Part shown: piece by piece, positions 6,192-24,275 of the stretch
Position numbering within the stretch: the first letter of the stretch is position 1
Layout of the letters: the number at the start of each line of letters is the position of its first letter
Source of the DNA: a bacterium
Lineage (GTDB): Bacteria; Zixibacteria; MSB-5A5; GN15; FEB-12
Direction: 5' to 3'
Assembly: GCA_043826475.1 (NCBI GenBank)
Contig: JBDRQG010000231.1
Location: 1-39,702 of the forward strand
Length of the DNA stretch: 39,702 nt
Translations under genes and position numbers: made by a program
Notes under the pieces: generated by a model
What the model was told of the DNA's origin: nothing
Databases searched by the model: none
Seen by the model: only the letters and a program-made list of their open reading frames with translations

Positions 6192-6272
6192 TGTTTATTA
6201 CCTATTCCTTTTATAATTTTGTTGTGAGTTATTTCTATATTTTATGTAATTATAAAATATTAAGGAGGAAAA

Positions 6273-7700: not shown

Positions 7701-7717
7701 TTGGTAGGAAGAAAATA

Positions 7718-8866: not shown

Positions 8867-10798
8867 ATGCTTACAAAAATCAAACTCCGGTTAAAGTTAA
8901 TTCTGAGTTTTTTATCGGTTATTATTATCGTTGGTGTTACATCTACTTTAGTAGGTGTGCATTTGATTGCCGATAGAATAGTGAAACAAGCTCAGGAGAA
9001 GGTTGAATTAGACCTCAATTCAGCAAGAGAAGTATACAATGATAAAATCAGAGATGTTAGTACTTCTATACGTTTGACTGCTCCTCGGTTCTTTTTAAAA
9101 GATGCTGTCTTAAGGAATGACATAGCGAGATTGAAAAAAGAGTTAAGAAGGATAAGAGAAAGGGAATCATTAGATATACTTAATCTAACTGATAAAGATG
9201 GAAAAGTCATTGTTAGAGCTAGAAATCCTGTAATTTATGGAGATGATCAATCAGATGATGAACTTGTTATAGAAGCAATTAGTAAAAAAGAAGTGGTAGC
9301 CTCAACACTAATCATCCCAAGGGATGAATTATTGAAAGAGGGAGAGGATCTGGCCAAGCAAGCATACATAAAGCTTATCCAAACTCCCAAAGCCAAGCCG
9401 ATATCAGGGAGTGAAGAAACCTCAGGAATGATGATAATAGCAGCAGCCCCAATTTTGGATTACCATGGAAACCTAATCGGTATCTTATATGGGGGGAACC
9501 TGCTTAATAGAAATTATGAGATTGTTGATAAAATAAAAGATATAGTTTATAGAGGAGAAACGTATAAGGGAAAAGACATTGGCACTGCTACAATATTTCA
9601 GGGTGATTTACGCATTTCAACCAATGTAGAGAGAAAGGATGGGACAAGAGCTATAGGTACGCGAGTATCCGAAGAAGTGAACAACCAAGTTTTAGTAAAG
9701 GGTATGCCATGGTTTGACAGGGCATTTGTCGTTAATAATTGGTATATAACGGCGTACGAACCGATAAGAAACATCAAAGATGAAGTAATTGGCATTTTGT
9801 ATGTTGGAATACTTGAAGAGAAGTTCGTAGATATGAAAAGACAAACTATGTTGACATTTTTGGGTATAACATTTGCCGGAATTGTCATCGCTTTTGCTAT
9901 TTCGTGTCTTCTTGGAAATAGTATAACAAAGCCAATTCGGTTACTTGTTTCTGCTTCTAATAAATTTGCAAAAGGAGACCTGGACCATAGAGTTGAATAT
10001 AGGAATAAAGATGAGATTGGAGAATTGGAAACAGCATTTAATTATATGTTAGATTCAATAAAGGAGAGAGATGAGAGATTAAAGGAATATACTAAGCAGG
10101 AAATAATGAAGTCTGAAAGATTAGCTATGGTGGGGCAATTAGCCGCAGGTGTTGCCCATGAAATCAATAACCCTCTTGGAAGCATTTTGATATATAGTCA
10201 TCTTTTGTTAGAGGATTTGGAAAAAGAAGATCCCAGGAGAGAAAATCTTGAGAAAATAGTAAATCAAGCCACGCGTTGTAAGAAGATTGTAAAAGGATTA
10301 CTGGATTTTTCTCATCAAACTGAACCTGAGATAAAACCCTCTGATATAAATACGATAGTTACAGAGGTTTTAGCTCTTGTTGAAAGACAGGAAATGTTTC
10401 ATAATATAAAAGTAATAAAAAAATTATTACCAGACCTGCCTACTATTTTGCTTGATAAGAATCAGATACAGCAGGTACTTATGAATATTATTCTTAATGC
10501 TGCTGAGGCTATGGATGGACAGGGTAAGTTGACAGTTGAAACTTCCTCTGATGAAGAATATGCAAGAATAAAATTTACTGATACAGGATGTGGAATTTCA
10601 GAAGAGAATATGAAAAAGCTATTTCAACCATTTTTTAGTACTAAAGAGACAGGTCATGGAACAGGGCTCGGGCTATCAATAAGCTATGGAATTATCAGAA
10701 AGCATAATGGAAAGATAAATGTAAGCAGCGAAATTGGAGAGGGAAGCACTTTCACTATAGTTTTACCCATAAGAGAGAAGAACGACCCCAAAACATGA
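8867..10798 (+). CDS. Sensor histidine kinase: TM, extracytoplasmic Cache-like domain, TM, HAMP, HisKA, HATPase
   Basis: 643 aa. Hydrophobic segments near residues 10-35 and 327-350. H-box AAGVAHEINNPLG, N-box NIILNAAEAM, G-boxes DTGCGI and GTGLGLSIS. Confidence 0.85.
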   Translation: MLTKIKLRLKLILSFLSVIIIVGVTSTLVGVHLIADRIVKQAQEKVELDLNSAREVYNDKIRDVSTSIRLTAPRFFLKDAVLRNDIARLKKELRRIRERESLDILNLTDKDGKVIVRARNPVIYGDDQSDDELVIEAISKKEVVASTLIIPRDELLKEGEDLAKQAYIKLIQTPKAKPISGSEETSGMMIIAAAPILDYHGNLIGILYGGNLLNRNYEIVDKIKDIVYRGETYKGKDIGTATIFQGDLRISTNVERKDGTRAIGTRVSEEVNNQVLVKGMPWFDRAFVVNNWYITAYEPIRNIKDEVIGILYVGILEEKFVDMKRQTMLTFLGITFAGIVIAFAISCLLGNSITKPIRLLVSASNKFAKGDLDHRVEYRNKDEIGELETAFNYMLDSIKERDERLKEYTKQEIMKSERLAMVGQLAAGVAHEINNPLGSILIYSHLLLEDLEKEDPRRENLEKIVNQATRCKKIVKGLLDFSHQTEPEIKPSDINTIVTEVLALVERQEMFHNIKVIKKLLPDLPTILLDKNQIQQVLMNIILNAAEAMDGQGKLTVETSSDEEYARIKFTDTGCGISEENMKKLFQPFFSTKETGHGTGLGLSISYGIIRKHNGKINVSSEIGEGSTFTIVLPIREKNDPKT

Positions 10799-12126
10799 AA
10801 ATATTAGTTATTGATGATGAAGAATATACACGTGATTCCTGCCGCCAGATACTCTCAGGAAATAGATATCGTGTGACAGAAGCTAAGGATGGGTACGAAG
10901 GGCTTGATCTAATAAAAAAGGAATCTTTCGACACTGTAATCCTTGATTTGAAGATGCCTGGTCTGAGTGGAATGGATGTATTAAAGAGGATAAAAGAGAA
11001 TAATCCAGAAACTATCGTGATCGTTATTACGGGCTATGCTTCGATCGATTCGGCAGTGGCAGCTATGAAAAGCGGTGCCTATGATTTCCTTCCCAAACCA
11101 TTCACTCCAGACGAGCTTCGTGTGGTTGTCAAACGAGCATTAGAAAAAAGAAAATTGTTGATGGATAACTTATATCTACGACAGGAACTTAAGTCAAGTA
11201 CTGAATTAGATATGATTATTGGTCACAGTAAAGCTATACGCAAAATTCATGATCTGGTGCGGAAAGTAGGACCAACCGGTAGCACAGTTTTAATCAGCGG
11301 CGAGAGCGGTACAGGAAAAGAATTAGTATCCAGAGCCATACACAAACACAGTGCTCGCAGTAACAAGCCGTTTGTCACTGTCGATTGTAGTACTCTGGTC
11401 GAAAACCTTTTTGAGAGCGAGCTCTTTGGTCATGTGAAAGGTTCCTTTACCGGAGCAAATGCTACAAAGCATGGCCGCTTAGAACTGGCAAATGGCGGTA
11501 CGGTTTTCCTTGATGAAATCAGCAATATCGGTATCAGTTTACAAGCAAAACTACTACGATCTATCCAAGAAAGGGAGATCACCAAAGTCGGTAGTACTCA
11601 GGCTATCAAAATTGATGTCAGAATTATTGCTGCTACAAATAAAAATCTCCAGAAAGAAGTCAAAGAAGGGACATTCCGAGAGGATCTTTTCTATCGGTTG
11701 AGTGTAGTACCTATCCATTTACCCCCTTTGCGTGAACGAAAAGATGACATTCCTTTGTTATCTAATTACTTTATGAACAAATACAACAAAAAGAGAAGGA
11801 AATCCATTAAAGGCATTTCCGAACGTGCAATGAAGGCTCTCGTCAATTACGATTGGCCGGGAAACGTACGAGAACTGGAGAATGCCATTGAAAGAGCCGT
11901 GGTACTAACGGAAAATGAATTCATAGAGCCTTCCGATCTTTACTACTACGGCTTAAGTGCGGAAATTGAAGCCATTAAAGATCGGACCCTCGTTGATGTC
12001 GAAAAACAACACATCGAAAAAACTCTGAAAATGTTTAGTGGTCACAAAATAAAAACATCTAAAGCGTTAGGGATAGACCGGAAGACGCTACGGGCAAAAA
12101 TGAAAAAATACGGTATAGGCTCTTAA
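10795..12126 (+). CDS. Sigma-54-dependent response regulator (NtrC family: REC, AAA+, Fis-type HTH)
   Basis: 443 aa. ATGA overlap with the kinase gene. REC with DLKMPG. Walker A GESGTGKE, ESELFGH, GSFTGA (GAFTGA-loop variant), C-terminal HTH ALGIDRKTLRAKMKKYGI. Confidence 0.9.
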   Translation: MKILVIDDEEYTRDSCRQILSGNRYRVTEAKDGYEGLDLIKKESFDTVILDLKMPGLSGMDVLKRIKENNPETIVIVITGYASIDSAVAAMKSGAYDFLPKPFTPDELRVVVKRALEKRKLLMDNLYLRQELKSSTELDMIIGHSKAIRKIHDLVRKVGPTGSTVLISGESGTGKELVSRAIHKHSARSNKPFVTVDCSTLVENLFESELFGHVKGSFTGANATKHGRLELANGGTVFLDEISNIGISLQAKLLRSIQEREITKVGSTQAIKIDVRIIAATNKNLQKEVKEGTFREDLFYRLSVVPIHLPPLRERKDDIPLLSNYFMNKYNKKRRKSIKGISERAMKALVNYDWPGNVRELENAIERAVVLTENEFIEPSDLYYYGLSAEIEAIKDRTLVDVEKQHIEKTLKMFSGHKIKTSKALGIDRKTLRAKMKKYGIGS

Positions 12127-12475
12127 CCTGAAAATTTCATTAGCCACTAAGTAACCAAGACACAAAATATTAATAAAATTGAAAATTAATGATAATATTT
12201 AAAACCAATAAATAGAAACTGAGTTATTAATAATAATTTCTCTTATATTAATATTTCTTCGTGACTTATCCCGTAATGGATTCCTGTCTTTGTGACAGAA
12301 AATTCTGGTTAACAATAAATAGTAAGATGGGGCATAACTCCCCATAGATGGGATAAAATCCCCCGTTTTCCATGCCATAAGCGAATAACAACGACCTGAA
12401 TATAAATTTATAATCTCACTTAAAATTAACCTTTTAGGCATTATCCTGAGTGGTTTTTTTATTTAGGCAAAATTA

Positions 12476-12491
12476 TGGCATAAAGTTTGTG
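12476..12491 (+). promoter_or_regulatory. Candidate sigma-54 (-24/-12) promoter, TGGCAT-N5-TTGT
   Basis: TGGCATAAAGTTTGTG matches TGGCAC-N5-TTGC in GG..G spacing but lacks the -12 C. It lies between the sigma-54 activator gene and the tandem-REC / FHL-like genes. Confidence 0.35.
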
Positions 12492-12506
12492 AAATCTAAA
12501 AAAGAG

Positions 12507-13295
12507 ATGATGGATAAAAGTAAAAAAATTCTTGTTATTGATCCCGATGCCGGAATAAGAGAGGAGTATCTCTCTCTTTTCAATGGTGAAGATTATGAGT
12601 TGGAAATAAGTGCAGGGTTCACCAAAGCTATGGAAAAAATTAAGAATGTTCATTTTGATTGCATCATTATAGATACTCATTTGCCTGAGATCTTGGTTTA
12701 TGATGCGGTTCCTATTATAAAGACGATTTACCCGGAAGTTGAAGTAATTGTAACCACTGCCCAAAACAGCAGAGAATTGGAAACCAAGGTGCGAGAACAG
12801 GACATTTTCTATTATTATATAAAATCATTTGAAATGGAAGAGCTAAGGTTAGCGGTTAGTGATATATTCAAAAAATTGGGGAAAATAAAGGAGGTAAAAA
12901 AGATGAAACAACCACCATTGATTCTAATTGTTGATAATGACCCGGATTTTGTGAAAGCAACACGAACTATCTTGAAGACAAAGTCATATAAAGTGGAAAT
13001 CGCATATGACAGAAATGAAGCCATGGAAAAGATCAAACATCTCAAACCCGATTTGATCCTTCTGGATATTATGATGAAGGAAATAGACGATGGATTTACT
13101 ATATGTTATGATCTTAAGCATGATCCTGAGTTAAAAAATATTCCTGTATTTGCTATCTCCGGCATAACTGAAAAGACTGGGTTTAAGTTCTCTCCAAAAA
13201 CCGATGGTGAATATTTTGCGGCAGACGACTATGTAGAAAAGCCTATTGAAGCTGATGATTTGCTGAAAAGGATTGAGGCACTTCTTACAAAATGA
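12507..13295 (+). CDS. Tandem-receiver (REC-REC) response regulator with no output domain
   Basis: The ORF track starts at GTG 12450. I prefer ATG 12507 (MMDKSKKILVID) because the receiver fold begins there. Two REC domains carry acceptor Asp contexts IIIDTHLP and LLDIMM. Confidence 0.8.
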   Translation: MMDKSKKILVIDPDAGIREEYLSLFNGEDYELEISAGFTKAMEKIKNVHFDCIIIDTHLPEILVYDAVPIIKTIYPEVEVIVTTAQNSRELETKVREQDIFYYYIKSFEMEELRLAVSDIFKKLGKIKEVKKMKQPPLILIVDNDPDFVKATRTILKTKSYKVEIAYDRNEAMEKIKHLKPDLILLDIMMKEIDDGFTICYDLKHDPELKNIPVFAISGITEKTGFKFSPKTDGEYFAADDYVEKPIEADDLLKRIEALLTK

Positions 13296-13371
13296 AAAAT
13301 CCCGTCTGTTCTTTACTTGCAATAAGTTTTTCAGATTAGGAATTGAGAAAATAGAAATAGGATAATTAAGG

Positions 13372-15474
13372 ATGATAGATGTTTTGACTACATGTCCGTT
13401 TTGCGGCTGTGGCTGCGGGATGTATCTTCAAGTAGAAAGAGGAGCCGTCACAGGAATAACACCTTCTCAGAAACATCCCATTTCTCGAGGAAGATTGTGC
13501 GCCCGTGGCTGGCACTCCTATGAGTTTATTCAACACCCTGACCGATTGAAAAAACCACTAATACGACAAAACACAAAAAATGAAGGAGTAGAAAGGAAAG
13601 CTGTTCGAAACTCTCTACCCAATTTTAGGGAAGCTGAATGGGATGAGGTATTGGATCTTGTATCTAATAAGCTAACCGAAATTAAATCTAAATATGGAAG
13701 TGAATCTCTGAGTGTTATCTCTTCTGCAAAATGCACTAATGAAGATAATTATGTTCTAATGAAATTCGCCCGTGCCGTATTGAAAACCAATAATGTTGAT
13801 AATGGTGGTAACATCTACGATGCGGCTACTTTGCCTGGCTTAAGATCGGCTTTCAGTATAGGAGCAGGAACCAATTCTCTTAGTGAACTGGAACAAGCAA
13901 AAGTTATTTTTGTTATCGGTGCTGATCCTGCCCAAGTTCATCCCCAAGTGAGTGCCCGCATAATAAATGCCGTTACTAACGGTGCCAAACTCATTCTCAT
14001 TGATCATAGGAAAACGCACCTTTCTAAGTTCGCCCATCTATACCTCCAGCTTAAGCCAGGAACCTATGTTGGTTTCATTAATGGATTAATAAACACGATC
14101 TTCAGTGAAAGAATGATAGATATAGAAAAAGTTAAACAACTCACTTCCAACTTACCGGCTTTGAAGTGGAAAGTTAAAAAATACACACCAAATTATGTTG
14201 AAAAACTTTCAGGTGTTTCCCAAAAAGATATACATAAGGCTGCTGAAATTTACACACAAACAAAAAAGTCAATGATCGTTTACTCAACCGGACTCACCCA
14301 ACAAATTGCCGGGGTAGATAATGTCAAGGCGCTTGCCAATTTAGTAATCTTGACTCAGCATCTTGGAGAGCCTTCAAGTGGTATTCTTCCATTACTGGAA
14401 CAGAATAATGCCCAAGGGGTGGCTGATGTTGGAGGAATACCAGATTATTATTCAGGTTATCAATCTATTAAAGACAGTCAAGCAAAGAAAAAATTTGAAA
14501 AATCCTGGAACGTAAAATTACCGATAAATTCAGGTCTCTCTGTACTTGAAATGCTAACTCCGGGGAGACTTAAAGGGATGATTATCGTTGGTGAAAATCC
14601 ATTAATCACTGCTCCAGATGTTAAGAACGTGGAGCAAACCTTGAGGGATTTAGAGTTTCTCGTTGTCCAGGATATTTTTTTAACGGAGACTGCTGAATGT
14701 GCTGACGTAGTTCTACCCGCAGCTTGTTTTGCAGAGAAAGAGGGTACATTTACCAATACTGAAAGAAGAGTTCAACGAATCAGGAAAGCCGTAGATCCAC
14801 CAGGCGAAAGTAAACCCGACTGGATGATCATTACCCATTTGGCAAAGCATATGGGATATGCATTGAATTACTCCTCTCCAAAAGAAATTATGGAAGAAAT
14901 AGCTGCTTTAACTCCGATTTATGCCGGTATCAACTATGAGAGATTAGATGAAGAGTGGGGACTGCAGTGGCCTTGTCCGGATGTAAAGCATTCAGGGACT
15001 TCGATTTTACATTTAGGCTATTTTGATCGTCCCAAGGCTTATTTTTCATTAGTTGAACAGAATGGCTTGGAAAAGCCGCATTTCACACCGACAGAAGATA
15101 TTCCGTTATTAGAGCCGCCCGGAGAGGAGTATCCATTTACACTTACCACCGGGAGTTTGTATTATCAATGGCACAGCGGTACTATGACTCGGCGTTCGGC
15201 TACTCTCAGCCGTGAATTTCCCGAAGTATTCGCGGCAATAAATCCAAAGGATGCCGAACAACTTAAGATCCGAAATGGTGAACGTATTAGAGTTTTATCT
15301 CATCGTGGTGAGATCGAAACTGCTGCTCTGTTAACCGATATGGTTCAAGAAAAAACCATATTTATACCGCTTCACTACAAAGAAACTGCCACTAAGATGT
15401 TGATCAATCCAAGTGTTTTTGATAAAGCGAAAACTATTGAATTACTATGTGCTGTAAGAGTTGAAAAGCTATGA
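13372..15474 (+). CDS. FdhH-like molybdopterin (bis-MGD) oxidoreductase subunit lacking the canonical Sec/Cys active site
   Basis: 700 aa. N-terminal CPFCGCGCG...RLCARG 4Fe-4S motif, and collinear similarity to formate dehydrogenase H through to the C-terminal domain. Active-site loop reads NNVDNGGNIYDAATLPG. Confidence 0.8.
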   Translation: MIDVLTTCPFCGCGCGMYLQVERGAVTGITPSQKHPISRGRLCARGWHSYEFIQHPDRLKKPLIRQNTKNEGVERKAVRNSLPNFREAEWDEVLDLVSNKLTEIKSKYGSESLSVISSAKCTNEDNYVLMKFARAVLKTNNVDNGGNIYDAATLPGLRSAFSIGAGTNSLSELEQAKVIFVIGADPAQVHPQVSARIINAVTNGAKLILIDHRKTHLSKFAHLYLQLKPGTYVGFINGLINTIFSERMIDIEKVKQLTSNLPALKWKVKKYTPNYVEKLSGVSQKDIHKAAEIYTQTKKSMIVYSTGLTQQIAGVDNVKALANLVILTQHLGEPSSGILPLLEQNNAQGVADVGGIPDYYSGYQSIKDSQAKKKFEKSWNVKLPINSGLSVLEMLTPGRLKGMIIVGENPLITAPDVKNVEQTLRDLEFLVVQDIFLTETAECADVVLPAACFAEKEGTFTNTERRVQRIRKAVDPPGESKPDWMIITHLAKHMGYALNYSSPKEIMEEIAALTPIYAGINYERLDEEWGLQWPCPDVKHSGTSILHLGYFDRPKAYFSLVEQNGLEKPHFTPTEDIPLLEPPGEEYPFTLTTGSLYYQWHSGTMTRRSATLSREFPEVFAAINPKDAEQLKIRNGERIRVLSHRGEIETAALLTDMVQEKTIFIPLHYKETATKMLINPSVFDKAKTIELLCAVRVEKL

Positions 15475-16580
15475 GAGCAAACAAAGAAAAGGAACTAAGG
15501 ATTCTAAAGAGAAAGAACCTTTTTACTCTGATGTCCAGATTTCTAGAGGATAGAGAAGTAATTGCACCGATTAAGGGTCACGGCGGTGAGGTAATATTTT
15601 ACCCGATCGAGACCATCGAAGACGTGGCATGGGATTGGACTTATGTCAATACCGTATTACCGCCGAAGAGATTCTTCCTTCCTCAGACTGAGGAGCTATT
15701 TCATTATAAAAACCAAAACAAGGGCTATGAAATTACCCCAATCTATAACGATAGAGTTCGAATGATCTTTGGAATACGTCCTTGCGATGTCAATGCCCTT
15801 CTTTTTTTGGACAAATTCTTCGGTGGAGGTCCCATTGGCCGGCGAGCACCCGTGGCTGAGCCAGGCATTCTTCAGGATCGCTACTATGCAACCCGAAGAG
15901 CAAATACCTTCATTATTGCTTTCGGCTGCCATCAACCTGGAGAAAACTGTTTCTGCATCTGTTGTGACAGCGGACCATTCCTCAAAGAGGGCTTCGATCT
16001 ACAATTAACGCAATTAGGAGGAGATGAATACATTGTGGAATTAGGTTCAGCCAGAGGACTTAAGATTTTCTACGGACACGAAGATTTATTCCGATCGGCT
16101 ACCAATGCAGAAGAGAAAAGGCTAACCGTGATCAAGGACAAAGCAACTCAACAGTTTGGGAATACACGTGCTTACATCAGTAAAGCCATTCAAAAGATCA
16201 CCCAAAATCAAGTCCCTGATGAACTCTGGGAAAATCTGAGCGATCGCTGTCAAGATTGCGGAGGCTGTTCCTATGTTTGTCCTACCTGCTGCTGTTACAA
16301 TGTTGTGGATGTGCCTACAAACGAAAACGAGGGTATCAGGACAAGAACCTGGGATAGTTGTGCTTTTGCAGGTTTTACAAAGCTTGCAGGTGGTGATAAC
16401 CCACGCTCCGAGAAGAAAGATAGGTTGAAAAGACGATTTTTTCATAAACTGTCTTATCATTATATAGAAAAAAACGGGAGACATGGATGCGTCGGTTGTG
16501 GAAGGTGCATTAATACCTGTTTTGCCAATATAAGTATGCCAGATATCGCCGATAAAATCAGAAAAGGGATAACGAGTTGA
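15471..16580 (+). CDS. AsrA / sulfhydrogenase-beta (HydB)-like poly-Fe-S protein
   Basis: 369 aa. ATGA overlap upstream. RPCDVNAL, CFCICC, CQDCGGCSYVCPTCCCYN, NPRSEKKDRLKRRFFHK, CVGCGRCINTC. Confidence 0.75.
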   Translation: MRANKEKELRILKRKNLFTLMSRFLEDREVIAPIKGHGGEVIFYPIETIEDVAWDWTYVNTVLPPKRFFLPQTEELFHYKNQNKGYEITPIYNDRVRMIFGIRPCDVNALLFLDKFFGGGPIGRRAPVAEPGILQDRYYATRRANTFIIAFGCHQPGENCFCICCDSGPFLKEGFDLQLTQLGGDEYIVELGSARGLKIFYGHEDLFRSATNAEEKRLTVIKDKATQQFGNTRAYISKAIQKITQNQVPDELWENLSDRCQDCGGCSYVCPTCCCYNVVDVPTNENEGIRTRTWDSCAFAGFTKLAGGDNPRSEKKDRLKRRFFHKLSYHYIEKNGRHGCVGCGRCINTCFANISMPDIADKIRKGITS

Positions 16581-17404
16581 AAGATATTTATCTTCCAGAT
16601 ATAGCTGTAATTGATGACATGACCGAAGAAACTGGGGACGTTACAACTTTCACTCTACGATTTAAGGATAAAAGATTGCAAGAAGAATTCGATTATAGAC
16701 CAGGTCAATTTGTTGAAGTCTCTGTTTTCGGAGTTGGTGAGATACCAATTTCCATTACCTCAACCCCATCAAGATCAGGATTCTTAGAGCTCAGTATTAA
16801 AAATGCAGGCTTGGTATCGGGTGCCCTTCACAAGCTTTCTAAAGGAGCAGAGGTCGGCGTTAGAGGACCTTTTGGAAACGGGTTCCCTTATGAAAAAGCT
16901 TTTGGGAAAAATCTACTCTTTGTGGGTGGTGGGGTAGGATTAGCTCCACTACGATCTTTAATCAATTTTGCTCTTGATAACCGTGATAGATTTGCAGACT
17001 TTTCCATACTTTATGGTTCCCGTACACCTGCGGATTTGGTTTTCCGCAAAGAACTTGAGCTTTTGGGAAAGCGTCCTGATGTGCGGACCTTTATTACTGT
17101 GGATCGTGGAGATGACCAATGGCAGGGTAACGTGGGTGTAGTGACAACCTTGTTCCCCAAAGCAGACATAACCAGCGAAGACACCCTGGCCTTTGTCTGT
17201 GGTCCCCCAGTTATGATCCCCTTCGTAATCCACGGTTTAATAAAGATCGGCTTCTCAGATGAAACAATCATCTCCACTTTGGAGAGGCACATGAAATGCG
17301 GAGTAGGTAAATGCGGTCATTGCTGCATCGGACACAAGTATGTATGTCAGGATGGGCCTGTATTCTCTTATAAAGAGATGAAGGAGATGGTAGAGAAAGC
17401 ATAG
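16577..17404 (+). CDS. AsrB / sulfhydrogenase-gamma (HydG) / PyrK-like FAD- and NAD(P)-binding 2Fe-2S flavoprotein
   Basis: 275 aa. TTG start overlaps the upstream stop. PGQFVEVSV, GPFGNGF, LLFVGGGVGLAPLRS, CGPPVM, C-terminal CGVGKCGHCCIG..YVCQDGPVF. Confidence 0.8.
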   Translation: MKDIYLPDIAVIDDMTEETGDVTTFTLRFKDKRLQEEFDYRPGQFVEVSVFGVGEIPISITSTPSRSGFLELSIKNAGLVSGALHKLSKGAEVGVRGPFGNGFPYEKAFGKNLLFVGGGVGLAPLRSLINFALDNRDRFADFSILYGSRTPADLVFRKELELLGKRPDVRTFITVDRGDDQWQGNVGVVTTLFPKADITSEDTLAFVCGPPVMIPFVIHGLIKIGFSDETIISTLERHMKCGVGKCGHCCIGHKYVCQDGPVFSYKEMKEMVEKA

Positions 17405-17448
17405 TGGAGAAAATTCGCAACTACAAGTGTAATATAGGAACATGGTAA

Positions 17449-17883
17449 ATGTTGATAAGCAAAATGAAAGAAGTTTGGATATGCCTTAAAGCCGGAAGAG
17501 TCACCCTGCCTTACCCTTTCAAACCAGCAATACCTCCAGATGGATTTAGAGGAAAGCTTGAGATAGATAAGGAAAAATGTATAGGCTGTGCTGGATGCGC
17601 AAATGTGTGTACACCAAGGGCTATTATCGTTACCGATTTAAACGGTGACTGGAGGAAAATCGATTTCTATCTGGAACGGTGCACATATTGTGGTCGATGT
17701 GAAGAAGTTTGCCCTGAAAATGCGATTGTCATGACCAAGGAATTTGAGACAGCAACCAACTCCAAGGAAGATTTGCATATATCTGTTGAGCTTTATATGG
17801 GTTCATGTCAGCGCTGTGGCCGCTGTTTCACTCCAGTACACCCTCTGGACAAAATGATGGTTACAGGATTTAGGGAGAATTGA
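17449..17883 (+). CDS. HycF / NuoI-like 2x[4Fe-4S] ferredoxin subunit
   Basis: 144 aa. CIGCAGCANVCTP and CTYCGRCEEVCPENAI, plus a further CQRCGRC. Confidence 0.8.
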   Translation: MLISKMKEVWICLKAGRVTLPYPFKPAIPPDGFRGKLEIDKEKCIGCAGCANVCTPRAIIVTDLNGDWRKIDFYLERCTYCGRCEEVCPENAIVMTKEFETATNSKEDLHISVELYMGSCQRCGRCFTPVHPLDKMMVTGFREN

Positions 17884-19572
17884 ATGTTGACAGGGAAACA
17901 GTTACTAGAAAAGCTGAAAAGGAAATTTGAAAACCAGATTATCTTATCTGAAGAAAATACGCCGGGGAAAATATTTATTACTATTCAACCAAAATCTTTG
18001 ACCTTTTTGGCAGATTATCTTTTAAATAAATTAGGATTTCGTTTTGTGATTAATATAGGCACCGATGAAATTCCACTGACCGGAGACTATGTGATCTCTT
18101 ATATATTTTCACTGGATAACGAAAAACTGTTTGTGTGCATCCATATACATATTGATCCCAACATCCCTTTTATAGACTCCATCACTCCAATAATCCCGGG
18201 TGCGAATTGGGCAGAGCGGGAAGTTCGTGACATGATCGGGGTTCATCCACGGAATCACCCGGATCCCCGTCGATTGGTACTTGCTGATGATTGGCCCGAT
18301 GATGTGTACCCTTTATGTAGGGACTTCCCTTACGACTACAAACCTCCTGCCCGACCTGAAAACAGGGTGAAATTAGCACCACCTCCAAGTGGTGCTAAGG
18401 TTATACCCATTGGGCCATTTTTCCCGGTTTTAGAAGAGCCCGCATACTTTAAGGTCTTTGTAGAGGGCGAGAAGATCATCGGCTGTGATTATAGGGGATT
18501 CTATAATCATAGGGGCATAGAAAAACTCGGAGAAAGTGTCTTAACCTATAACCAAATATGCTTTATGGCTGAACGCATTTGCGGTATTTGTGGATTTGTG
18601 CATTCATGCTGTTACTGTCAGGCTATTGAAGAAGCTGCAGACATAAAAGTGCCTCCCCGAGCCCAGTACATCCGCACTATTATGCTGGAGCTGGAAAGGA
18701 TAGCAAGTCACCTCTTATGGGTGGGAATAGCCGGACATATTATTGGATTTGACACTGTTCTGATGCATAGCTGGCGCATCCGGGAACCCGTAATGTGGTT
18801 GTGCGAACAGATTACCGGTAACAGAAAAACTTACGGTATGAACCTAATAGGAGGAGTAAGAAGAGATATTCCCATGGAATTACATCTAAAAGTTTATGAA
18901 ACAATCGATAAAATTGAGAAGGAATTAAAGGCTCTAGTGAATGCAATTCTTGGCGACACTTCTTTGCATGTCAGATTAAAAAAGGTAGGTGTACTAACAA
19001 AGGATGAGGCTTTAGATATGTGTGTGGTCGGTCCTGTTGCTAGAGCCTCAGGAGTGAATATCGACTCTCGTAGGGATCATCCCTATGCTGCTTACGACAA
19101 GCTGCAATTTAAAGTTCCAGTTAAGCAGGATGGGTGTTGTTGGTCTCGTACCTTAGTCCGATTAGAGGAATTATTTGAATCAGTAAAGATCATAAGACAA
19201 GCACTCAGAGAAATGCCTAAAGGAGAGATCATGGCTCACGTGGAAGAGATTCCACCTAATAAAGAAGCTATCTGTGTGGTAGAAGCCCCCCGGGGTGAGG
19301 TCGTACATTATGTATTAACAGGTACTGAGAATAGACCTTACCGCTGGAAAGTAAGAGCCCCAACCTACGCTAATCTTCAGGTTGTTCCAATAATCATTAA
19401 GAATGAACAAATAGCAGATGTCCTCATTGCAATCGGCAGCCTCGATCCTTGTTTCTCGTGTACAGAGCGAATGATCGTAGTGAAGAAAAAAACCGACAAG
19501 CAAACTTTAAATTGTCAGGATTTAATGAACCTGAGTAGAGAAAAAACAGTCAAAATAAAGAAAAATATTTAG
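17884..19572 (+). CDS. Group-4 [NiFe]-hydrogenase large subunit, HycE-like NuoC-NuoD fusion
   Basis: 562 aa. N-terminal NuoC-like ANWAEREVRDMIGV, then ERICGICGFVHSCCYC (L1) and DPCFSCTER (L2), followed by a 33-aa tail. Start abuts the upstream stop (TGAATG). Confidence 0.9.
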   Translation: MLTGKQLLEKLKRKFENQIILSEENTPGKIFITIQPKSLTFLADYLLNKLGFRFVINIGTDEIPLTGDYVISYIFSLDNEKLFVCIHIHIDPNIPFIDSITPIIPGANWAEREVRDMIGVHPRNHPDPRRLVLADDWPDDVYPLCRDFPYDYKPPARPENRVKLAPPPSGAKVIPIGPFFPVLEEPAYFKVFVEGEKIIGCDYRGFYNHRGIEKLGESVLTYNQICFMAERICGICGFVHSCCYCQAIEEAADIKVPPRAQYIRTIMLELERIASHLLWVGIAGHIIGFDTVLMHSWRIREPVMWLCEQITGNRKTYGMNLIGGVRRDIPMELHLKVYETIDKIEKELKALVNAILGDTSLHVRLKKVGVLTKDEALDMCVVGPVARASGVNIDSRRDHPYAAYDKLQFKVPVKQDGCCWSRTLVRLEELFESVKIIRQALREMPKGEIMAHVEEIPPNKEAICVVEAPRGEVVHYVLTGTENRPYRWKVRAPTYANLQVVPIIIKNEQIADVLIAIGSLDPCFSCTERMIVVKKKTDKQTLNCQDLMNLSREKTVKIKKNI

Positions 19573-19581
19573 GAATTAAAT

Positions 19582-19597
19582 TGGCAAACCATTTGAA
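19582..19597 (+). promoter_or_regulatory. Candidate sigma-54-like -24/-12 element, TGGCAA-N5-TTGA, in the gap between the large- and small-subunit genes
   Basis: TGGCAAACCATTTGAA has the correct GG..G spacing but lacks the -12 C. It sits 10 nt after the hycE-like stop in a 147-bp spacer. Confidence 0.3.
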
Positions 19598-19719
19598 AGC
19601 ACAAACTTTTTAAATGTAGAGAACACAAAGTAGGTACAATAATTGCTAAGTTTTTATTACACTTACATGCTTTACAACCATTCAGCTAACTTTGCGGTTA
19701 ATTTAAGGGGATAGCAGTC

Positions 19720-20199
19720 ATGTTCAAGACTCTATTAAACAAATGCTTCAAGAAATCCATCTGGGTTTATCACACAAATACCGGAGCTTGTAACGGCTGT
19801 GACATCGAGGTAATTAATACGTTGACACCCTATTATGACGCTGAGAGATTCGGGATCAAATTAGTGGGAACCCCTCGGCACGCTGACGCACTATTAGTTT
19901 GCGGCCCCGTGACCCGACAAGTAGTTCCCGCCCTCAAATGTTTGTACGATTCTGTGCCCGATCCTAAGATGATAATTGCTATTGGATCCTGTGCCATTGG
20001 CGGAGGAATTTGGTACAATACTTACAATGTTCTAGGTGGTGTTGATAAAATACTTCCTGTGGATTATTTCATCCCCGGATGTCCTCCCCGCCCTGAAGCT
20101 ATTCTTTACGGTATTGCAGTGGCTCTGGGAGTGGTGAAGAAGAAAGTGTCTCCGGTAATCCTCAAAGAAGAAAGCCCCGAAAAATGGATGACATTTTAA
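19720..20199 (+). CDS. Group-4 [NiFe]-hydrogenase small subunit (NuoB/HycG/EchC-like)
   Basis: 159 aa. GACNGCDIE, GSCAIGGG and IPGCPPRPE supply the four Cys of the proximal 4Fe-4S cluster. Confidence 0.9.
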   Translation: MFKTLLNKCFKKSIWVYHTNTGACNGCDIEVINTLTPYYDAERFGIKLVGTPRHADALLVCGPVTRQVVPALKCLYDSVPDPKMIIAIGSCAIGGGIWYNTYNVLGGVDKILPVDYFIPGCPPRPEAILYGIAVALGVVKKKVSPVILKEESPEKWMTF

Positions 20200-21119
20200 G
20201 AGCCATATTCTATACAATTATCTTTCCAGGTTTAATTTTTACTAGTGTCCTTGGCCTTTTCTTCTGTTGGGTTGATAGAAAGATAGCCGCACGAATCCAA
20301 AGTAGAATAGGACCACCATGGTATCAGTGTTATGCCGATGTTCTCAAACTGATGGGCAAAACGATGATAATACCCAGAGGGAGCAGAAAAGCTGGTTTTT
20401 TATTGGCTCCTCTTTTAGGATTAGCCGGCGTCACTCTGGTATCGACCATAATCTGGAGAGTAAACATAAACCAGGAAGTAAGTTTTGTAGGTGACTTGAT
20501 TGTAGTGCTTTACTTATTGATTCTACCTTCTCTTGCTTTGATTATGGGTGGTTCTTCTTCGCGAAATCCTTTTGGAGCCATAGGTGCTAGCAGGGAAATG
20601 AAAATGATATTAGCATATGAACTGCCATTTCTCATTGCAATTATTACCGTTATATTGAAGGTCAAATCAATACTCTTAGGAGAGATTATCACATTTCAAT
20701 CCATTCAGGGAGTTTTAGTGGGAAATCCTTCGTGTGTAATTGCTTTTATCGTCTGTCTCCCTTGTATTCAGGCTAAACTCACCTACATACCTTTCGATAT
20801 TCCGGAGGCAGAAACAGAAATTATTGGGGGCACTCTGGCAGAATATTCCGGCGTCTCGCTTGCTATATTCAAATTAACCAATGCTATGATGTTATTTATC
20901 TTACCCTTCTTTTTGATTTCTCTTTTTTTCGGTGGAATTAATTTCAATATAAAAGGAATTCTAATTGTACTGGTTGAATATCTGGCAATTCTTCTTCTAA
21001 TAATATTAATCAAAACAACTCATCCTCGCCTCCGTATTGATCAGGCAATTAAGTTCTTCTGGTGGCTTGTGACTCCGTTTGCGGTTGTCGGGATGATTCT
21101 GGCACTGATAGGAGTGTAA
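20184..21119 (+). CDS. NuoH / HycD-like integral membrane subunit
   Basis: 311 aa, polytopic and hydrophobic. N-terminal WVDRKIAARIQSRIGPPW motif typical of NuoH/HycD. 16-nt overlap with the small-subunit gene. Confidence 0.85.
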   Translation: MDDILRAIFYTIIFPGLIFTSVLGLFFCWVDRKIAARIQSRIGPPWYQCYADVLKLMGKTMIIPRGSRKAGFLLAPLLGLAGVTLVSTIIWRVNINQEVSFVGDLIVVLYLLILPSLALIMGGSSSRNPFGAIGASREMKMILAYELPFLIAIITVILKVKSILLGEIITFQSIQGVLVGNPSCVIAFIVCLPCIQAKLTYIPFDIPEAETEIIGGTLAEYSGVSLAIFKLTNAMMLFILPFFLISLFFGGINFNIKGILIVLVEYLAILLLIILIKTTHPRLRIDQAIKFFWWLVTPFAVVGMILALIGV

Positions 21120-21121
21120 AA

Positions 21122-22954
21122 ATGAATTTGATTCTTCTCATTCCGATTATATTGCCAATAACTATAGGATTTATATGTCTGATTGTTCCTTGGCAGCGAA
21201 TCAGGGAGGTATTCACTTTTATTGGGATGCTACTGACCACTGCTGTGGCTTTGAAAATCCTACTTTTGAATGAACTCAGGTTGCAGATAGAGTGGATTAC
21301 CCTCTCTTCTATGCAAATAAATTTTGATCTTATCTCCTACCACTTTAGCGCCTTCATTCTCCTTGCTTGCTCGTTTTTCGGATTGTTAATCACAATCTAT
21401 TCTCTAAAACAGATGAAAGGCAAATATTATTTGAAAGAATATTACATCTATCTACTTTGGACGGTGGGGATTGCTAATGGTTCTATCCTTTCTAACAATC
21501 TGGTTATTCTACTGATTTTTTGGGGTATTATGCCGGTATTGCTATATCTTCTTATAGATATTAGTGGGTCTGGTTCTGGAAAAGCGGCATTAAAGAGTAT
21601 TATCATCGTAGGAGGTTCAGATTTTCTCATGTTATTGGGTGTGGTTATTATCTGGCACCTTAAAGGCACCATAACAATGAACGAGATAATAATCCCCATA
21701 GAAGATGGATTGTCTACAGCAGCTTTTATTCTTCTGACAATTGGAGCCGTTGCTAAGGCAGGTGCTATGCCTTTTCATAGCTGGATTCCGGACGCAGCTG
21801 AAGTTGCCCACGTACCAGTTATGGCTTTTCTCCCAGCAGCACTTGATAAGCTACTTGGAATTTACCTCTTGGTTAGGATCGCTTTAGACCTCTTTATAAT
21901 GGATTATAGTATGAAGGTTCTCTTGATGAGCATCGGTGCAGTCACCATAATTGCCGCTGTGATGATGGCCCTGGTTCAAAAAGATTTGAAAAAGCTGCTC
22001 TCTTATCATGCCGTATCGCAAGTCGGGTATATGGTTTTGGGGATCGGCACCGGAACACTAATAGGGATTGCTGGCGGGTTATTCCACATGTTGAATAACG
22101 TCATTTACAAATGTTGTCTCTTTCTGTGTTGCGGGGCGGTTGAACACAGAATAAAAACAACTAACTTAGAAAGCTTAGGCGGTTTAGCCAGGACGATGCC
22201 GGTGACTTTCATTACCTGTACTATTGCTGCCCTCTCCATATCCGGGATTCCCCCCTTAAATGGATTTGTCTCCAAATGGATGGTGTATCAAGGGACGATC
22301 GATGTAGGTGGTTCAATATGGCCCATTTTTTTAATCGCTGCAATGTTCGGCAGTGCCTTAACTCTGGCCTCTTTTGTAAAAGTTCTTCACTCGGTCTTCT
22401 TGGGTGAAAAGCCAAAAGAGATCATGGAACCGAAGGAAGTGGAATTCTCGATGAAAGTTCCTTTGGTAATCCTTGCTCTTTTCTGTGTGTTTTTTGGGAT
22501 CTTTGCTCAATTCCCCTTAAAATATTTTATTGGACCGGTGCTGGAAGTAAGATTCAGTGGAATTGGGGAAGCTATTAACCTTAATGGGATGTGGAGTCCT
22601 ACATTAGCCACTACTCTTCTTGCTTTCAGCCTGGTATGCGGGATAATCTTCTATCGAATAGGAAACATTAAGGCTTTGAAAGAGGGGGATATTTTCGTGG
22701 GTGGAGAGCCTATCGATTGTGAGGAGCTAAGAATATCAGGAATTCATTTTTACGATACTATTGAATCTACTGGCTTTTTAAAGTACCTGTATAAAAAAGC
22801 AAAGGCACGAGCATTTGATCCTTATGAATGGGGAAAAACCATCTCTTTTTCTCTTTACTCGGGTTTAAGTAAGATACACAGTGGTATTTTACCAATTTAT
22901 TTACTCTGGATTATCGTCGGATTTGCAGTTTTATTGTTCATATTGATGAAATGA
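21122..22954 (+). CDS. NuoL/M/N / HycC-like antiporter-type membrane subunit
   Basis: The ORF track starts at 21062, inside the previous gene. ATG 21122 (MNLILLIPIIL) begins 3 nt after that gene's stop, giving 610 aa. Motifs include AKAGAMPFHSWIPDA and LLSYHAVSQVGYM. Confidence 0.85.
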   Translation: MNLILLIPIILPITIGFICLIVPWQRIREVFTFIGMLLTTAVALKILLLNELRLQIEWITLSSMQINFDLISYHFSAFILLACSFFGLLITIYSLKQMKGKYYLKEYYIYLLWTVGIANGSILSNNLVILLIFWGIMPVLLYLLIDISGSGSGKAALKSIIIVGGSDFLMLLGVVIIWHLKGTITMNEIIIPIEDGLSTAAFILLTIGAVAKAGAMPFHSWIPDAAEVAHVPVMAFLPAALDKLLGIYLLVRIALDLFIMDYSMKVLLMSIGAVTIIAAVMMALVQKDLKKLLSYHAVSQVGYMVLGIGTGTLIGIAGGLFHMLNNVIYKCCLFLCCGAVEHRIKTTNLESLGGLARTMPVTFITCTIAALSISGIPPLNGFVSKWMVYQGTIDVGGSIWPIFLIAAMFGSALTLASFVKVLHSVFLGEKPKEIMEPKEVEFSMKVPLVILALFCVFFGIFAQFPLKYFIGPVLEVRFSGIGEAINLNGMWSPTLATTLLAFSLVCGIIFYRIGNIKALKEGDIFVGGEPIDCEELRISGIHFYDTIESTGFLKYLYKKAKARAFDPYEWGKTISFSLYSGLSKIHSGILPIYLLWIIVGFAVLLFILMK

Positions 22955-23140
22955 AAAATGCAAACGGTGTACCAGAAGTGCTCGAGGCAAGTCTGGGGAA
23001 TAATTCTCCATGACCGAGGTAGAATTCCCCACAAAATAAACAATTCCAAGTATTTAAAGAGTTTTTTAAATAAATATTTTAGATACAAGCTATTACATTA
23101 CAACCAATTGGGATTTGATCCATCAGGCTGTTTTGTTATT

Positions 23141-23156
23141 TGGTATAGAATTTGAC
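23141..23156 (+). promoter_or_regulatory. Candidate sigma-54-like -24/-12 element, TGGTAT-N5-TTGA
   Basis: TGGTATAGAATTTGAC has the same GG..G spacing, and the same 18-nt distance from the -12 G to the ATG, as the 12476 site. Weaker -24 half (T for C). Confidence 0.25.
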
Positions 23157-23171
23157 GCTACCACAAGTAAG

Positions 23172-24275
23172 ATGATTAATAGAACAGAAAATATTACAAT
23201 ACTTATTATTGATGATGATGAATCTATGTGTGATGCATGTGTGCAGACATACGTGAAAAGTGGTTATATAGTAGATATTGCAGGCGATGGTGTTTCTGGC
23301 ATGCAAAAGGTTAAAGATATAAATCCCGATCTTGTGCTTGTTGACCTGAAAATGCCCGGGATAAGTGGTATGGTTGTGCTTGAAGAGATTAAAAAAATTG
23401 ACCCGGAAATTGTTACTATAGTGATAACGGGTTATGCGTCAATCGATTCGGCAATCGAATCGATGAAAAAAGGCGCATACGATTTTTTGCCTAAGCCGTT
23501 TACTCCTGAAGAGCTACGACTGATCACTAAAAGAGCCCTTGAGAAAAGGCGATTGACTATTGAATCTAATCGCTTACTTCAAGAGAAAAATGAAATGAGA
23601 GAAGGATTCATTAGTATGGTTTCACATCAACTTAGAACTCCTCTTGTTGCTGTGCAGCAATATTTTGAAGTAATTCTCGGTGGTATGGCTGGTGAAGTCA
23701 CTGATGAACAAAGAGAGATGCTGGAGAGGTCTAAAATTCGCATTGATCAGCTGATATATTTAATCAAGGACTGGCTTAATCTATCAAAGATAGATGCTAA
23801 TAGGATTGTAAAAAAATTGGCATCGATAAATATAACTTCAATTTTCACGAATATTTTTAATTTGATGCAGACAATTGCAAAGGAAAAGAATATTACTCTA
23901 AAGATGGATATTCCTGAAAATCTTCCTACAATTTCTGCTGATGAGGAAACTCTGGAACAGGCGTTCTTAAATTTGGTTGATAATGGAATAAAATATGGTA
24001 AAAATGATGGAAGTCTGGTAGTTAGTGCAAAGGAAAAGAATGGATATATAGAGGTGAGTATTTCTGATAATGGTATCGGAATTCCGGAGGATAAATTGCC
24101 TTTTATCTTCGAACAATTTTATCAGGTTGAATATAAGACTGAAAGTGCCGGTTTGGGATTATCTATTGTAAAGAAGATTATGGATGCTCATTCCGCCACT
24201 ATCAAAGTAACAAGTGAACTTGGTAAGGGAAGTACTTTTACGGTGCTATTACCAAAAATCAAGGAGGAGAAATGA
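23172..24275 (+). CDS. Receiver-histidine kinase (REC, HisKA, HATPase) with no sensor domain
   Basis: The ORF track starts at TTG 23115. I prefer ATG 23172 (MINRTENITILIIDDD), giving 367 aa. NtrC-type REC (DLKMPG, GYASIDSA, AYDFLPKPF). H-box SMVSHQLRTPL, N-box NLVDNGIKYG, G-boxes DNGIGI and AGLGLSI. Confidence 0.8.
   Translation: MINRTENITILIIDDDESMCDACVQTYVKSGYIVDIAGDGVSGMQKVKDINPDLVLVDLKMPGISGMVVLEEIKKIDPEIVTIVITGYASIDSAIESMKKGAYDFLPKPFTPEELRLITKRALEKRRLTIESNRLLQEKNEMREGFISMVSHQLRTPLVAVQQYFEVILGGMAGEVTDEQREMLERSKIRIDQLIYLIKDWLNLSKIDANRIVKKLASINITSIFTNIFNLMQTIAKEKNITLKMDIPENLPTISADEETLEQAFLNLVDNGIKYGKNDGSLVVSAKEKNGYIEVSISDNGIGIPEDKLPFIFEQFYQVEYKTESAGLGLSIVKKIMDAHSATIKVTSELGKGSTFTVLLPKIKEEK

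Follow-up and report, generated by a model that had tools for sequence, protein, structure and literature searches.

We analyzed a 39,702-nucleotide contig (JBDRQG010000231.1, positions 1 to 39,702) of a bacterium of the Zixibacteria lineage; this whole stretch is referred to below as the window. At positions 13372-22954 of its forward strand lies a cassette of eight genes that, with a probability of roughly one-half, encodes a single membrane-bound group-4 [NiFe]-hydrogenase complex that would be linked to NAD(P)H, would probably be ion coupled, and would receive or deliver electrons through a three-subunit module (FdhL, AsrA-like, and AsrB-like) derived from formate dehydrogenase (FDH). The cassette holds a hydrogenase core with its Ni-Fe ligands and a flavoprotein with its FAD, NAD(P), and [2Fe-2S] motifs, while its FDH homologue FdhL lacks the catalytic residues of FDH, and the arrangement is conserved in other genomes.

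All long open reading frames (ORFs) of the window are on the forward strand, and its G+C content is ~38%. An ORF check found eight consecutive, co-directional, mostly overlapping genes where an earlier note, made from the sequence without database searches, had placed them, and Pfam and NCBIfam profiles put the products in the families that it had named; solved-structure matches were obtained by a Protein Data Bank (PDB) search. E-values range from 1e-17 to 1e-213, which excludes chance. The genes, and the one long gap between them, are as follows.

13372..15474, +, FdhL, FDH-derived molybdopterin-family subunit, 700 amino acids (aa) (Molybdop_Fe4S4, Molybdopterin, and Molydop_binding)
15471..16580, +, HydB/AsrA-like poly-Fe-S subunit, 369 aa (Pfam Fer4_22)
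16577..17404, +, HydG/AsrB-like FAD/NAD(P) [2Fe-2S] flavoprotein, 275 aa, TTG start at 16577 (FAD_binding_6, NAD_binding_1, and DHODB_Fe-S_bind)
17449..17883, +, HycF/NuoI-like subunit (HycF/HyfH/NuoI-like) with two [4Fe-4S] clusters, 144 aa (Pfam, NCBIfam, and PDB 7z0s_F)
17884..19572, +, HycE-like [NiFe] large subunit, a NuoC-NuoD fusion, 562 aa (Complex1_30kDa, NiFeSe_Hases, and Complex1_49kDa)
19573..19719, +, 147-nt intergenic gap from HycE to HycG
19720..20199, +, HycG/NuoB/MbhJ-like small subunit, 159 aa (Pfam; PDB 6cfw_J, E = 5e-55)
20184..21119, +, HycD/NuoH-like membrane subunit, 311 aa (Pfam NADHdh, E = 3.7e-67; NCBIfam NuoH-type)
21122..22954, +, HycC/MbhH/NuoL-like antiporter-type membrane subunit, 610 aa (Pfam, NCBIfam, and MbhH match)

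The junctions are, in order, -4, -4, +44, 0, +147, and -16 nt, and the last is either an overlap or +2 nt: the HycC reading frame starts at ATG 21122, which has a GGAG ribosome-binding site (610 aa), or, in the longest ORF, at GTG 21062 (630 aa). A scan of 12100-23300 for sigma-70 promoters and terminators returned counts at chance level, with nothing above chance between the two halves of the cassette. The HycE-HycG gap, which measures from -8 to +273 nt in relatives, had no Rfam match and no terminator above chance. Neither the ORF list nor Pfam revealed a HycB/Fer4_11-type ORF within 13372-22954, and Pfam found no AsrC and no group-3b alpha-delta subunits in the cluster.

The products of the last five genes define a group-4 [NiFe]-hydrogenase, with both Ni-Fe motifs and with NuoB-, NuoI-, NuoH-, and NuoL-like subunits. 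In the HycE-like protein, which has the same NuoC-NuoD fusion as HycE/HyfG, the ligand motifs are RICGICG at aa 231-237 (nt 18574-18594; RICGICGFVH at aa 231-240) and DPCFSC at aa 521-526 (nt 19444-19461), the latter followed by a 36-aa C-terminal extension. Its best solved match is Escherichia coli HycE (7z0s_E, group 4a; 428 bits, E = 7e-127), and the Ni-Fe motifs align, bearing out the prediction of intact CGIC...CFSC ligands. The HycF-like protein matches 7z0s_F (E = 5e-24) and has both CxxCxxCxxxC motifs, while the HycG-like protein has the four Cys of the proximal [4Fe-4S] cluster (C24, C27, C91, and C121). The HycC-like protein matches MbhH (E = 1e-51), resembles MbhH/Mrp more than it does E. 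coli HycC, and has the lysines of transmembrane helices (TM) 7, 8, and 12. Together, HycF, HycE, HycG, HycD, and HycC amount to the Ech/Hyc minimal set of six subunits, an intact core for which ion coupling would be expected by homology. The label "group 4f" was considered and set aside, since in the literature it means either Ehr complexes lacking Ni-Fe ligands or six-subunit Ech-like enzymes, not this cassette.

On the input side, the absence of a HycB-like gene and the presence of a sulfhydrogenase-type Fe-S/flavoprotein pair, both pointed out in the earlier note, are upheld by Pfam, by NCBIfam, and by matches to Pyrococcus furiosus soluble hydrogenase I (SHI). The AsrA-like subunit has the Cys motifs CFCICC (aa 160-165), CQDCGGCSYVC (aa 260-270), and CVGCGRCINTC (aa 340-350) and matches SHI beta (9nez_B, E = 1.4e-40); the AsrB-like subunit matches SHI gamma (9nez_C, E = 3e-65) and carries GEIPIS for FAD, GGGVGLAP and YGSRTP for NAD(P), and CGVGKCGHC...C for the [2Fe-2S] cluster. 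The former is thus a poly-[4Fe-4S] protein, and the latter has an FNR-like FAD/NAD(P) fold with a C-terminal [2Fe-2S] cluster. In an alignment, GE(I/A/V)P(I/F)S, GGG(V/I)GL(A/P/C)PLR, YG(S/A)RTP, and the C-terminal 2Fe-2S cysteines are conserved in both hydrogenase-linked and stand-alone AsrB proteins. A flavoprotein without an NAD(P)-binding fold had been named beforehand as an outcome that would count against the reading in the earlier note; this outcome was not seen, as the AlphaFold model (predicted local distance difference test [pLDDT] score, 87) superimposes on NADPH-bound P. furiosus SHI gamma (9nf0_C) with a template modeling (TM) score of 0.90. The best named NCBIfam matches are sulfhydrogenase beta and AsrA for the first protein and HydG, ShyC, and AsrB for the second, all below the equivalog cutoffs (190 versus 690 for ShyB, 229 versus 650 for HydG, and 207 versus 289 for AsrB). 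With scores so far below the cutoffs, and with no AsrC or group-3b dimer, the pair are best described as relatives, not members, of the sulfhydrogenase and sulfite reductase families.

The AsrA-like protein also contains an insertion of 13 to 15 residues, GGGPIGRRAPVAEPG, at aa 118-132 (window positions 15822-15866), which is found only in window-type cassettes (L005, L006, and L011) and is absent from the second architecture described below, from stand-alone FDH trios, and from SHI beta; on sequence grounds it is a candidate docking element.

FdhL is, by family, an FDH. It scores 708 bits against TIGR01591 (Fdh-alpha), above the trusted cutoff of 666; its best solved match is HDCR FdhF (7qv7; 608 bits, ~50% identity); its AlphaFold model shows the complete FDH fold (pLDDT, 84; TM score to FdhH, ~0.9); and it retains the cysteines of the FS0 [4Fe-4S] cluster (C8, C11, C15, and C43). 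The catalytic triad, which belongs to the same family description, is replaced, and several pterin-contact motifs (GSNTxExHP, PGTD, SDP, TTGR, and the C-terminal Lys) are altered. Relative to 7qv7, DHCARLCH has become DNGGNIYD and LRGQNN has become LLEQNN, so that Tyr149 occupies the position of the Mo-ligand Cys or selenocysteine (Sec) and Asp150 that of the catalytic His (nt 13816-13821), while Leu342, followed by Glu343, stands at the catalytic Arg (nt 14395-14400). In E. coli numbering, the residues replaced are Sec/Cys140, His141, and Arg333, and the pocket becomes acidic. The Lys that bridges the pterin and FS0 (Lys44) is Arg45. Since the Mo ligand, His, and Arg are all replaced, formate oxidation by FdhL is, judging from these residues, very unlikely.

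These substitutions also bear on whether the cassette could be a genuine formate hydrogenlyase (FHL), with formate oxidized either by FdhL in a noncanonical way or by a docking FDH encoded elsewhere, which we consider highly improbable. FdhL does pass the TIGR01591 cutoff, public records call it a formate dehydrogenase, and the solved structure closest to the large subunit is E. coli HycE; however, the three residues on which formate oxidation depends have all been replaced, in a pocket that is now acidic, and there is no HycB-type adaptor through which a trans-acting FdhF could connect. Neither of the features that would mark an FHL, the catalytic residues of FdhH and a HycB/HyfA linker, is found in the cassette.

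A search for FdhL relatives in a 5.8-billion-protein collection placed these replacements in a well-delimited group, here called the YD clade, of 35 sequence clusters with at least 59% identity to FdhL, all of which have DNGxxx(Y/T)D, L(L/Q/G/V)EQNN, and Arg45. Beyond the clade, identity falls sharply to at most 51%, and among the matches listed, 86 of 86 keep Cys, His, and Lys and 83 of 86 keep Arg. The description of FdhL as a degenerate Y-D variant of FdhH thus stands, both against 7qv7 and across the clade. In those FDHs, 214 alignment columns are invariant at a level of 95% or higher; the YD clade keeps 152 of these (71%) and departs from the FDHs in the other 62. About 16 of the changed columns are fixed to a new residue (C149Y, H150D, D232Y, M306T, H311Q, G343E, S413T, R595S, T602S, E622A, and N675K, among others), and ~45 are variable. 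Because these ~45 columns were freed although the YD clade as a whole shows less diversity than the FDHs (mean column entropy of 0.83 versus 1.05), constraint on them appears to have been relaxed; a further 89 positions are newly invariant. Changed or relaxed positions concentrate in GSNTxExHP, DPR, PGTD, MGITQH, SDP, TTGR, and the C-terminal Lys, motifs that we take to wrap the two pterins and the substrate funnel in enzymes with a molybdenum or tungsten bis(pyranopterin guanine dinucleotide) cofactor (Mo/W-bisPGD). In FdhL itself, TTGR has become TTGS and the C-terminal Lys is deleted, with loss of basic contacts to the pterin phosphates, while the domain-III pterin segment DIFLTETA...FTNTERRVQ is wholly retained. 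Some of the low-pLDDT stretches of the FdhL model (71-81, 308-312, 554-565, 598-604, and 680-690) overlap altered pterin motifs; since the underlying alignment mixed YD and true FDH sequences, they were not used as evidence. Rfam gave no match at the gathering threshold anywhere in the window, and a permissive search of 12100-13400 was likewise negative, so that there is no molybdenum cofactor (Moco) riboswitch; Pfam analysis of the window neighbors found no Moco gene near the cassette. The substitution pattern points to a pterin pocket under relaxed constraint, and loss of the Mo cofactor from FdhL is likely.

In public records (P0134, P0141, P0010, P0019, and others), YD-type FdhL proteins are named "formate dehydrogenase subunit alpha," and the [NiFe] large subunit of these loci is named "NADH-quinone oxidoreductase subunit C." Such names would mislead reconstructions of formate and H2 cycling from sediment and groundwater metagenome-assembled genomes (MAGs).

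The gene order FdhL-AsrA-AsrB-HycF-HycE-HycG-HycD-HycC is found in all eight YD-clade loci whose flanks are long enough to show it, namely, the window, L005, L006, and L011 (Planctomycetota/Phycisphaerae), L020 plus L003, L027, L028, and L029. A YD-type FdhH homologue beside AsrA/AsrB-like and HycE-like genes, the arrangement for which the earlier note had proposed searches, is thus present in other genomes and in several phyla. Carriers are Nitrospirota-like bacteria, Planctomycetota, and unclassified MAGs. The identities of the trio and of the hydrogenase subunits track each other across lineages, and no other input module is present within the YD loci. Some of them have additional antiporter subunits, namely, a second antiporter-like protein in L027 and L028 and an Mrp-like set in L029.

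A second architecture, found in Spirochaetota and Deltaproteobacteria/Thermodesulfobacteriota MAGs (L007, L008, L009, L012, L013, and L015), places the three-gene module ahead of a Hyf-ordered group-4 hydrogenase. Its Mo-like protein (~575 to 600 aa, ~28% identity) is far more degenerate than YD FdhL, having lost the catalytic residues and essentially all domain II/IV pterin motifs while keeping the four FS0 cysteines. The closest true FDHs (48 to 51% identity to FdhL), in contrast, are encoded in stand-alone operons of FdhA with HydB/AsrA-like and HydG/AsrB-like proteins and no hydrogenase, as in the cultured Dissulfurispira thermophila (L025), the metagenome contig L026, and the cultured Thermincola ferriacetica, whose FdhA has an in-frame TGA (Sec) in DHCARL*H. 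AsrA and AsrB of these trios are 35 to 56% identical to the window pair. For the same trio in Desulfurivibrio dismutans (RS03125-03135), a role as NAD(P)H-dependent CO2 reductase has been put forward without biochemistry (PMC12142623). Because the nearest true FDHs occur in stand-alone trios, the module of the cassette appears to be a soluble NAD(P)-linked FDH module that was grafted onto a hydrogenase and whose FDH site was lost afterwards.

The slot ahead of the hydrogenase can also be filled differently. In Pelotomaculum schinkii (L022:3614-16280 and L023:4134-16280), the large subunit is 60% identical to that of the window and belongs to the same hydrogenase clade, and the upstream genes encode a HycB-like ferredoxin and a tungsten aldehyde:ferredoxin oxidoreductase (AOR), with HycI downstream; the presence of these genes in the same slot implies that the input module is exchangeable. 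By its gene content, the P. schinkii locus looks like an aldehyde-linked hydrogenlyase in a cultured syntroph. Where an FDH-derived module fills the slot, the pattern of retained residues indicates that the FDH active site is dispensable and the FS0 cluster is indispensable. No cultured organism with the same cassette was found; P. schinkii has the AOR input, and T. ferriacetica and D. thermophila have the stand-alone true-FDH trio only.

Unusual features were seen in further loci. In an Armatimonadota chromosome (CP070816; L024:1861-12642), a cluster comprises an FdhL-like protein without the Cys-His pair, AsrA, AsrB, HycI, two antiporter-like genes, HycE, and HycD; neither HycF nor HycG is encoded next to it, and the cluster is either split or decaying. 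Within the second architecture, four independent Deltaproteobacteria/Thermodesulfobacteriota MAGs have an in-frame TGA at the N-terminal Ni-Fe ligand Cys of the HycE-like subunit, giving RI*GICG in L008 (10691-10693) and RI*GI*G in L009, L012, and L013 (10691-10693 and 10700-10702), in a gene that begins at locus position 10001. In all four, the frame runs on past the TGA to a normal DPCFSC end, and a conserved hairpin of 7 to 9 bp (CACAGUA-CGUGU-UACUGUG) lies ~15 nt downstream; it is absent from the Cys versions (L007 and the window). For these four MAGs, the sequence points to a group-4 hydrogenase with selenocysteine in its L1 motif. In the [NiFeSe] enzymes known to us, Sec is in the C-terminal motif.

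In the reading that we prefer, the trio would replace HycB and FdhH as the electron-input module. Electrons would move reversibly between NAD(P)H, FAD, and the [2Fe-2S] cluster within the AsrB-like flavoprotein, then through the [4Fe-4S] clusters of the AsrA-like protein and possibly FS0 of FdhL, and on through the two [4Fe-4S] clusters of HycF and the [4Fe-4S] cluster of HycG to the [NiFe] site of HycE and H2, with ion movement coupled through HycD and HycC. The FAD/NAD(P) site of the HydG-like flavoprotein is the only recognizable substrate site left on the input side, and we infer that NAD(P)H is the electron partner. That FS0 is strictly retained even where the Mo subunit is most degenerate suggests that FdhL was kept as an Fe-S relay or docking adaptor; it is most likely such a relay or scaffold and not pure ballast. 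At low H2 pressure, NAD(P)H-driven H2 evolution is exergonic, and at high H2 pressure, H2-driven NAD(P)+ reduction is (delta E0' of ~94 mV from textbook potentials), so the route could serve either direction.

Several observations weigh against this interpretation. Two of them concern the membrane arm. The TM5 Glu is replaced by Gly in HycC of the window (FWGIMP, aa 153-158, nt 21518-21535), L027, and L028, while it is kept in the Planctomycetota orthologue L029, in P. furiosus MbhH, and in Pelotomaculum paralogues ((F/L)WE...), a comparison that rests on MbhH and the paralogues, not on E. coli HycC; in addition, the window encodes only one antiporter-like subunit. Together, these features make ion pumping uncertain in this lineage, and ion translocation is less certain than the earlier note implied. 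A third observation is that the core has every subunit of an Ech-type enzyme and might, in principle, use ferredoxin with no need of the trio. Finally, the replacement residues of FdhL (Tyr149, Asp150, Tyr232, Glu343, and others) are themselves ~100% conserved in the YD clade, and 152 of the 214 FDH-invariant positions, the domain-III pterin motif among them, are kept, which leaves room for a repurposed, cofactor-bearing Mo/W site.

The last point leads to a different view of the complex, in which FdhL holds Mo/W-bisPGD in a site remodeled around Tyr149, Asp150, and Glu343, with its electrostatics switched from positive to negative, the substrate of the hydrogenlyase is something other than formate, electrons leave via AsrA, and AsrB is an NAD(P)H side port. 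We judge this unlikely, although it accounts for the near-invariance of the substituted residues, the 89 newly invariant positions, the retention of 71% of the FDH-invariant positions and of the whole domain-III pterin-binding segment, and the prediction of a full FDH fold (TM score, ~0.9). Asp is, besides, a known Mo ligand in Nar-type enzymes. Set against these are the relaxed constraint at many FDH-invariant pterin and funnel positions, the change of TTGR to TTGS with loss of the C-terminal Lys, the sister architectures that keep the module with a thoroughly degenerate Mo domain, and the lack of a Moco riboswitch (Rfam) or a nearby Moco gene (Pfam, window). We also know of no Tyr-ligated Mo/W-bisPGD enzyme. 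It would be rather a stretch, on present sequences, to assign YD FdhL as a Mo/W-bisPGD enzyme with an unprecedented acidic Tyr/Asp site and the cassette as an energy-converting membrane hydrogenlyase of this kind, with a non-formate substrate and an NAD(P)H side port.

The self-sufficiency of the core raises another possibility, that two separate enzymes are merely adjacent: an Ech-like, ferredoxin-dependent hydrogenase (HycFEGDC) and a soluble FdhL-AsrA-AsrB enzyme with another role. The five hydrogenase genes do form a complete Ech-type subunit set, the trio is a stand-alone operon elsewhere, and gaps of 44 nt and 147 nt separate AsrB from HycF and HycE from HycG. Nonetheless, hydrogenase genes follow YD FdhL in eight of eight loci with enough flank, the linkage persists in a second gene order and in other phyla, subunit identities of the two halves track across lineages, and the scan for promoters and terminators gave nothing above chance between these halves. 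By itself, moreover, a trio whose FDH is dead would have only NAD(P)H as donor or acceptor. We therefore think it quite improbable that the halves work apart and infer that the eight products probably act in one complex.

The cassette was compared with known systems. With E. coli FHL-1 (FdhF-HycBCDEFG; 7Z0S/7Z0T), the cassette shares the fused HycE with its Ni-Fe motifs and C-terminal extension, HycF, HycG, and HycD homologues, a single antiporter-like subunit, and an FdhH-family protein; it differs in lacking HycB, in having an FdhL without Sec/Cys140, His141, and Arg333, in the inserted HydB/HydG pair, and in a HycC nearer to MbhH/Mrp. P. furiosus SHI (group 3b; 9NEZ/9NF0) has homologues of the pair as its beta and gamma subunits, with the same FAD, NAD(P), 2Fe-2S, and poly-4Fe-4S motifs, but there the partner is a cytoplasmic group-3b alpha-delta dimer, whereas in the cassette it is a membrane group-4 enzyme plus a dead FDH. 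Stand-alone FdhA-HydB-HydG operons have the same three families in the same order; their FdhA, however, keeps Cys/Sec-His-Arg-Lys and is not linked to a hydrogenase. The Hyf-like hydrogenase of P. schinkii differs in its HycB-like and AOR input, Hyf-type order, three antiporter-like subunits, NuoK-like subunit, and HycI.

The earlier note had drawn a parallel with respiratory complex I, and in part it stands: a NuoB/C/D/H/I/L-homologous core is joined to an NAD(P)H flavoprotein and to a molybdopterin-fold subunit that would perform no catalysis and keeps an Fe-S cluster. The C-terminal domain of NuoG, with cluster N7, is a comparable molybdopterin-fold relic. On the other hand, the cassette keeps its Ni-Fe site and has no quinone site, its FAD flavoprotein is of the FNR/PyrK type and not an FMN-containing NuoF, and NuoE and NuoA/J/K/M/N are missing; none of the features that define complex I was found. 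The resemblance is one of convergence or analogy and not of membership.

The literature searched contained no characterized enzyme with this subunit set, in agreement with the earlier note; the arrangement itself, however, has been sighted before. A locus described as enigmatic in Saganbacteria RX5A combines the gene for an FDH-like molybdopterin protein, which could not be classified and has one 4Fe-4S domain, with asrA-like and asrB-like genes and a membrane NiFe hydrogenase (Matheus Carnevali et al. 2019, Nat Commun, PMC6349859; bioRxiv 10.1101/328856). Its function was left undetermined, and FDH plus Asr-like pairs alone were also reported (PMC6349859). That locus, which we liken to the cassette by description and not by sequence, differs in its cooF-like gene and Mrp-Mbh-type antiporter subunits, and the residues of its Mo subunit were not analyzed. 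New here beyond the 2019 sighting, at the level of sequence, are the conserved loss of catalytic residues, the relaxed-constraint pattern, the ancestor module, the graded decay series, and the breadth across phyla.

To our knowledge, every characterized group-4 [NiFe]-hydrogenase is supplied with electrons by a low-potential donor, whether ferredoxin, formate, or CO. If our interpretation is correct, a membrane-bound, possibly ion-coupled hydrogenase with NAD(P)H as its electron partner would represent a new physiological class, of relevance to fermenters and syntrophs that must get rid of NAD(P)H by forming H2 when H2 pressure is low or that capture H2 as NAD(P)H. These loci would also be candidate living intermediates for the long-standing idea that complex I arose when a hydrogenase core gained a soluble dehydrogenase module whose Mo subunit then decayed to an Fe-S scaffold, as in NuoG. 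Three stages of such decay are visible, from soluble trios with an intact FDH through the YD clade to Mo subunits that are fully degenerate. Since the flavoprotein family differs from that of NuoF, the process would be convergent with the assembly of complex I.

Upstream of the cassette are three genes for signal transduction.

8867..10798, +, sensor histidine kinase (Pfam dCache/sCache_3, HAMP, HisKA, and HATPase)
10795..12126, +, NtrC-type sigma-54-dependent response regulator (Pfam REC, Sigma54_activat, and HTH_8)
12489..13295, +, REC-REC double-receiver protein directly upstream of the first cassette gene (two Response_reg domains; start from the L001 gene call)

The Cache kinase, sigma-54 regulator, and REC-REC protein are conserved upstream of the cassette in L027 and L028, and the REC-REC protein also in L029; from this conserved position, the Cache kinase (8867..10798) is the probable regulator of the cassette. 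A search for sigma-54 promoters (TGGCAC-N5-TTGCW, at most 2 mismatches) gave 24 matches, compared with 14.4 ± 3.6 expected, none of them upstream of FdhL, and was not counted as evidence. It yielded no convincing -24/-12 promoter, the weak candidates being a 3-mismatch site at 12476 and an internal one at 19632. The HycE-HycG gap holds sigma-54-like -24/-12 matches, e.g., AGGTACAATAATTGCT at 19632-19647; such matches occur at chance frequency in the window.

Metabolic genes of the neighborhood include two malic enzymes (one receiver fused), isocitrate dehydrogenase, acetate kinase, a LarA-like protein, and a DcuS/CitA-type Cache kinase, a setting that, speculatively, would fit the disposal of NAD(P)H while organic acids are oxidized. 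Right downstream of the cassette, a malic enzyme with an N-terminal receiver domain follows a hybrid REC-histidine kinase and a REC-REC protein (25218-26963 and 23115-25060); the domain composition suggests that the receiver-fused malic enzyme is under phosphorylation control.

A second hydrogenase locus lies upstream of the cassette, at window positions 107-8670.

107-514, +, MvhD/FlpD
511-969, +, HycI-family protease
1077-1763, +, 2Fe-2S plus 4Fe-4S protein
1800-3473, +, FAD_binding_2 flavoprotein
3485-4465, +, NiFe small subunit
4728-6191, +, NiFe large subunit
6273-7700, +, GlcD-like FAD oxidase
7718-8275, +, ferredoxin
8272-8670, +, second MvhD

In L028 and L029, too, MvhD/Hdr-like or group-3 hydrogenase genes adjoin the cassette.

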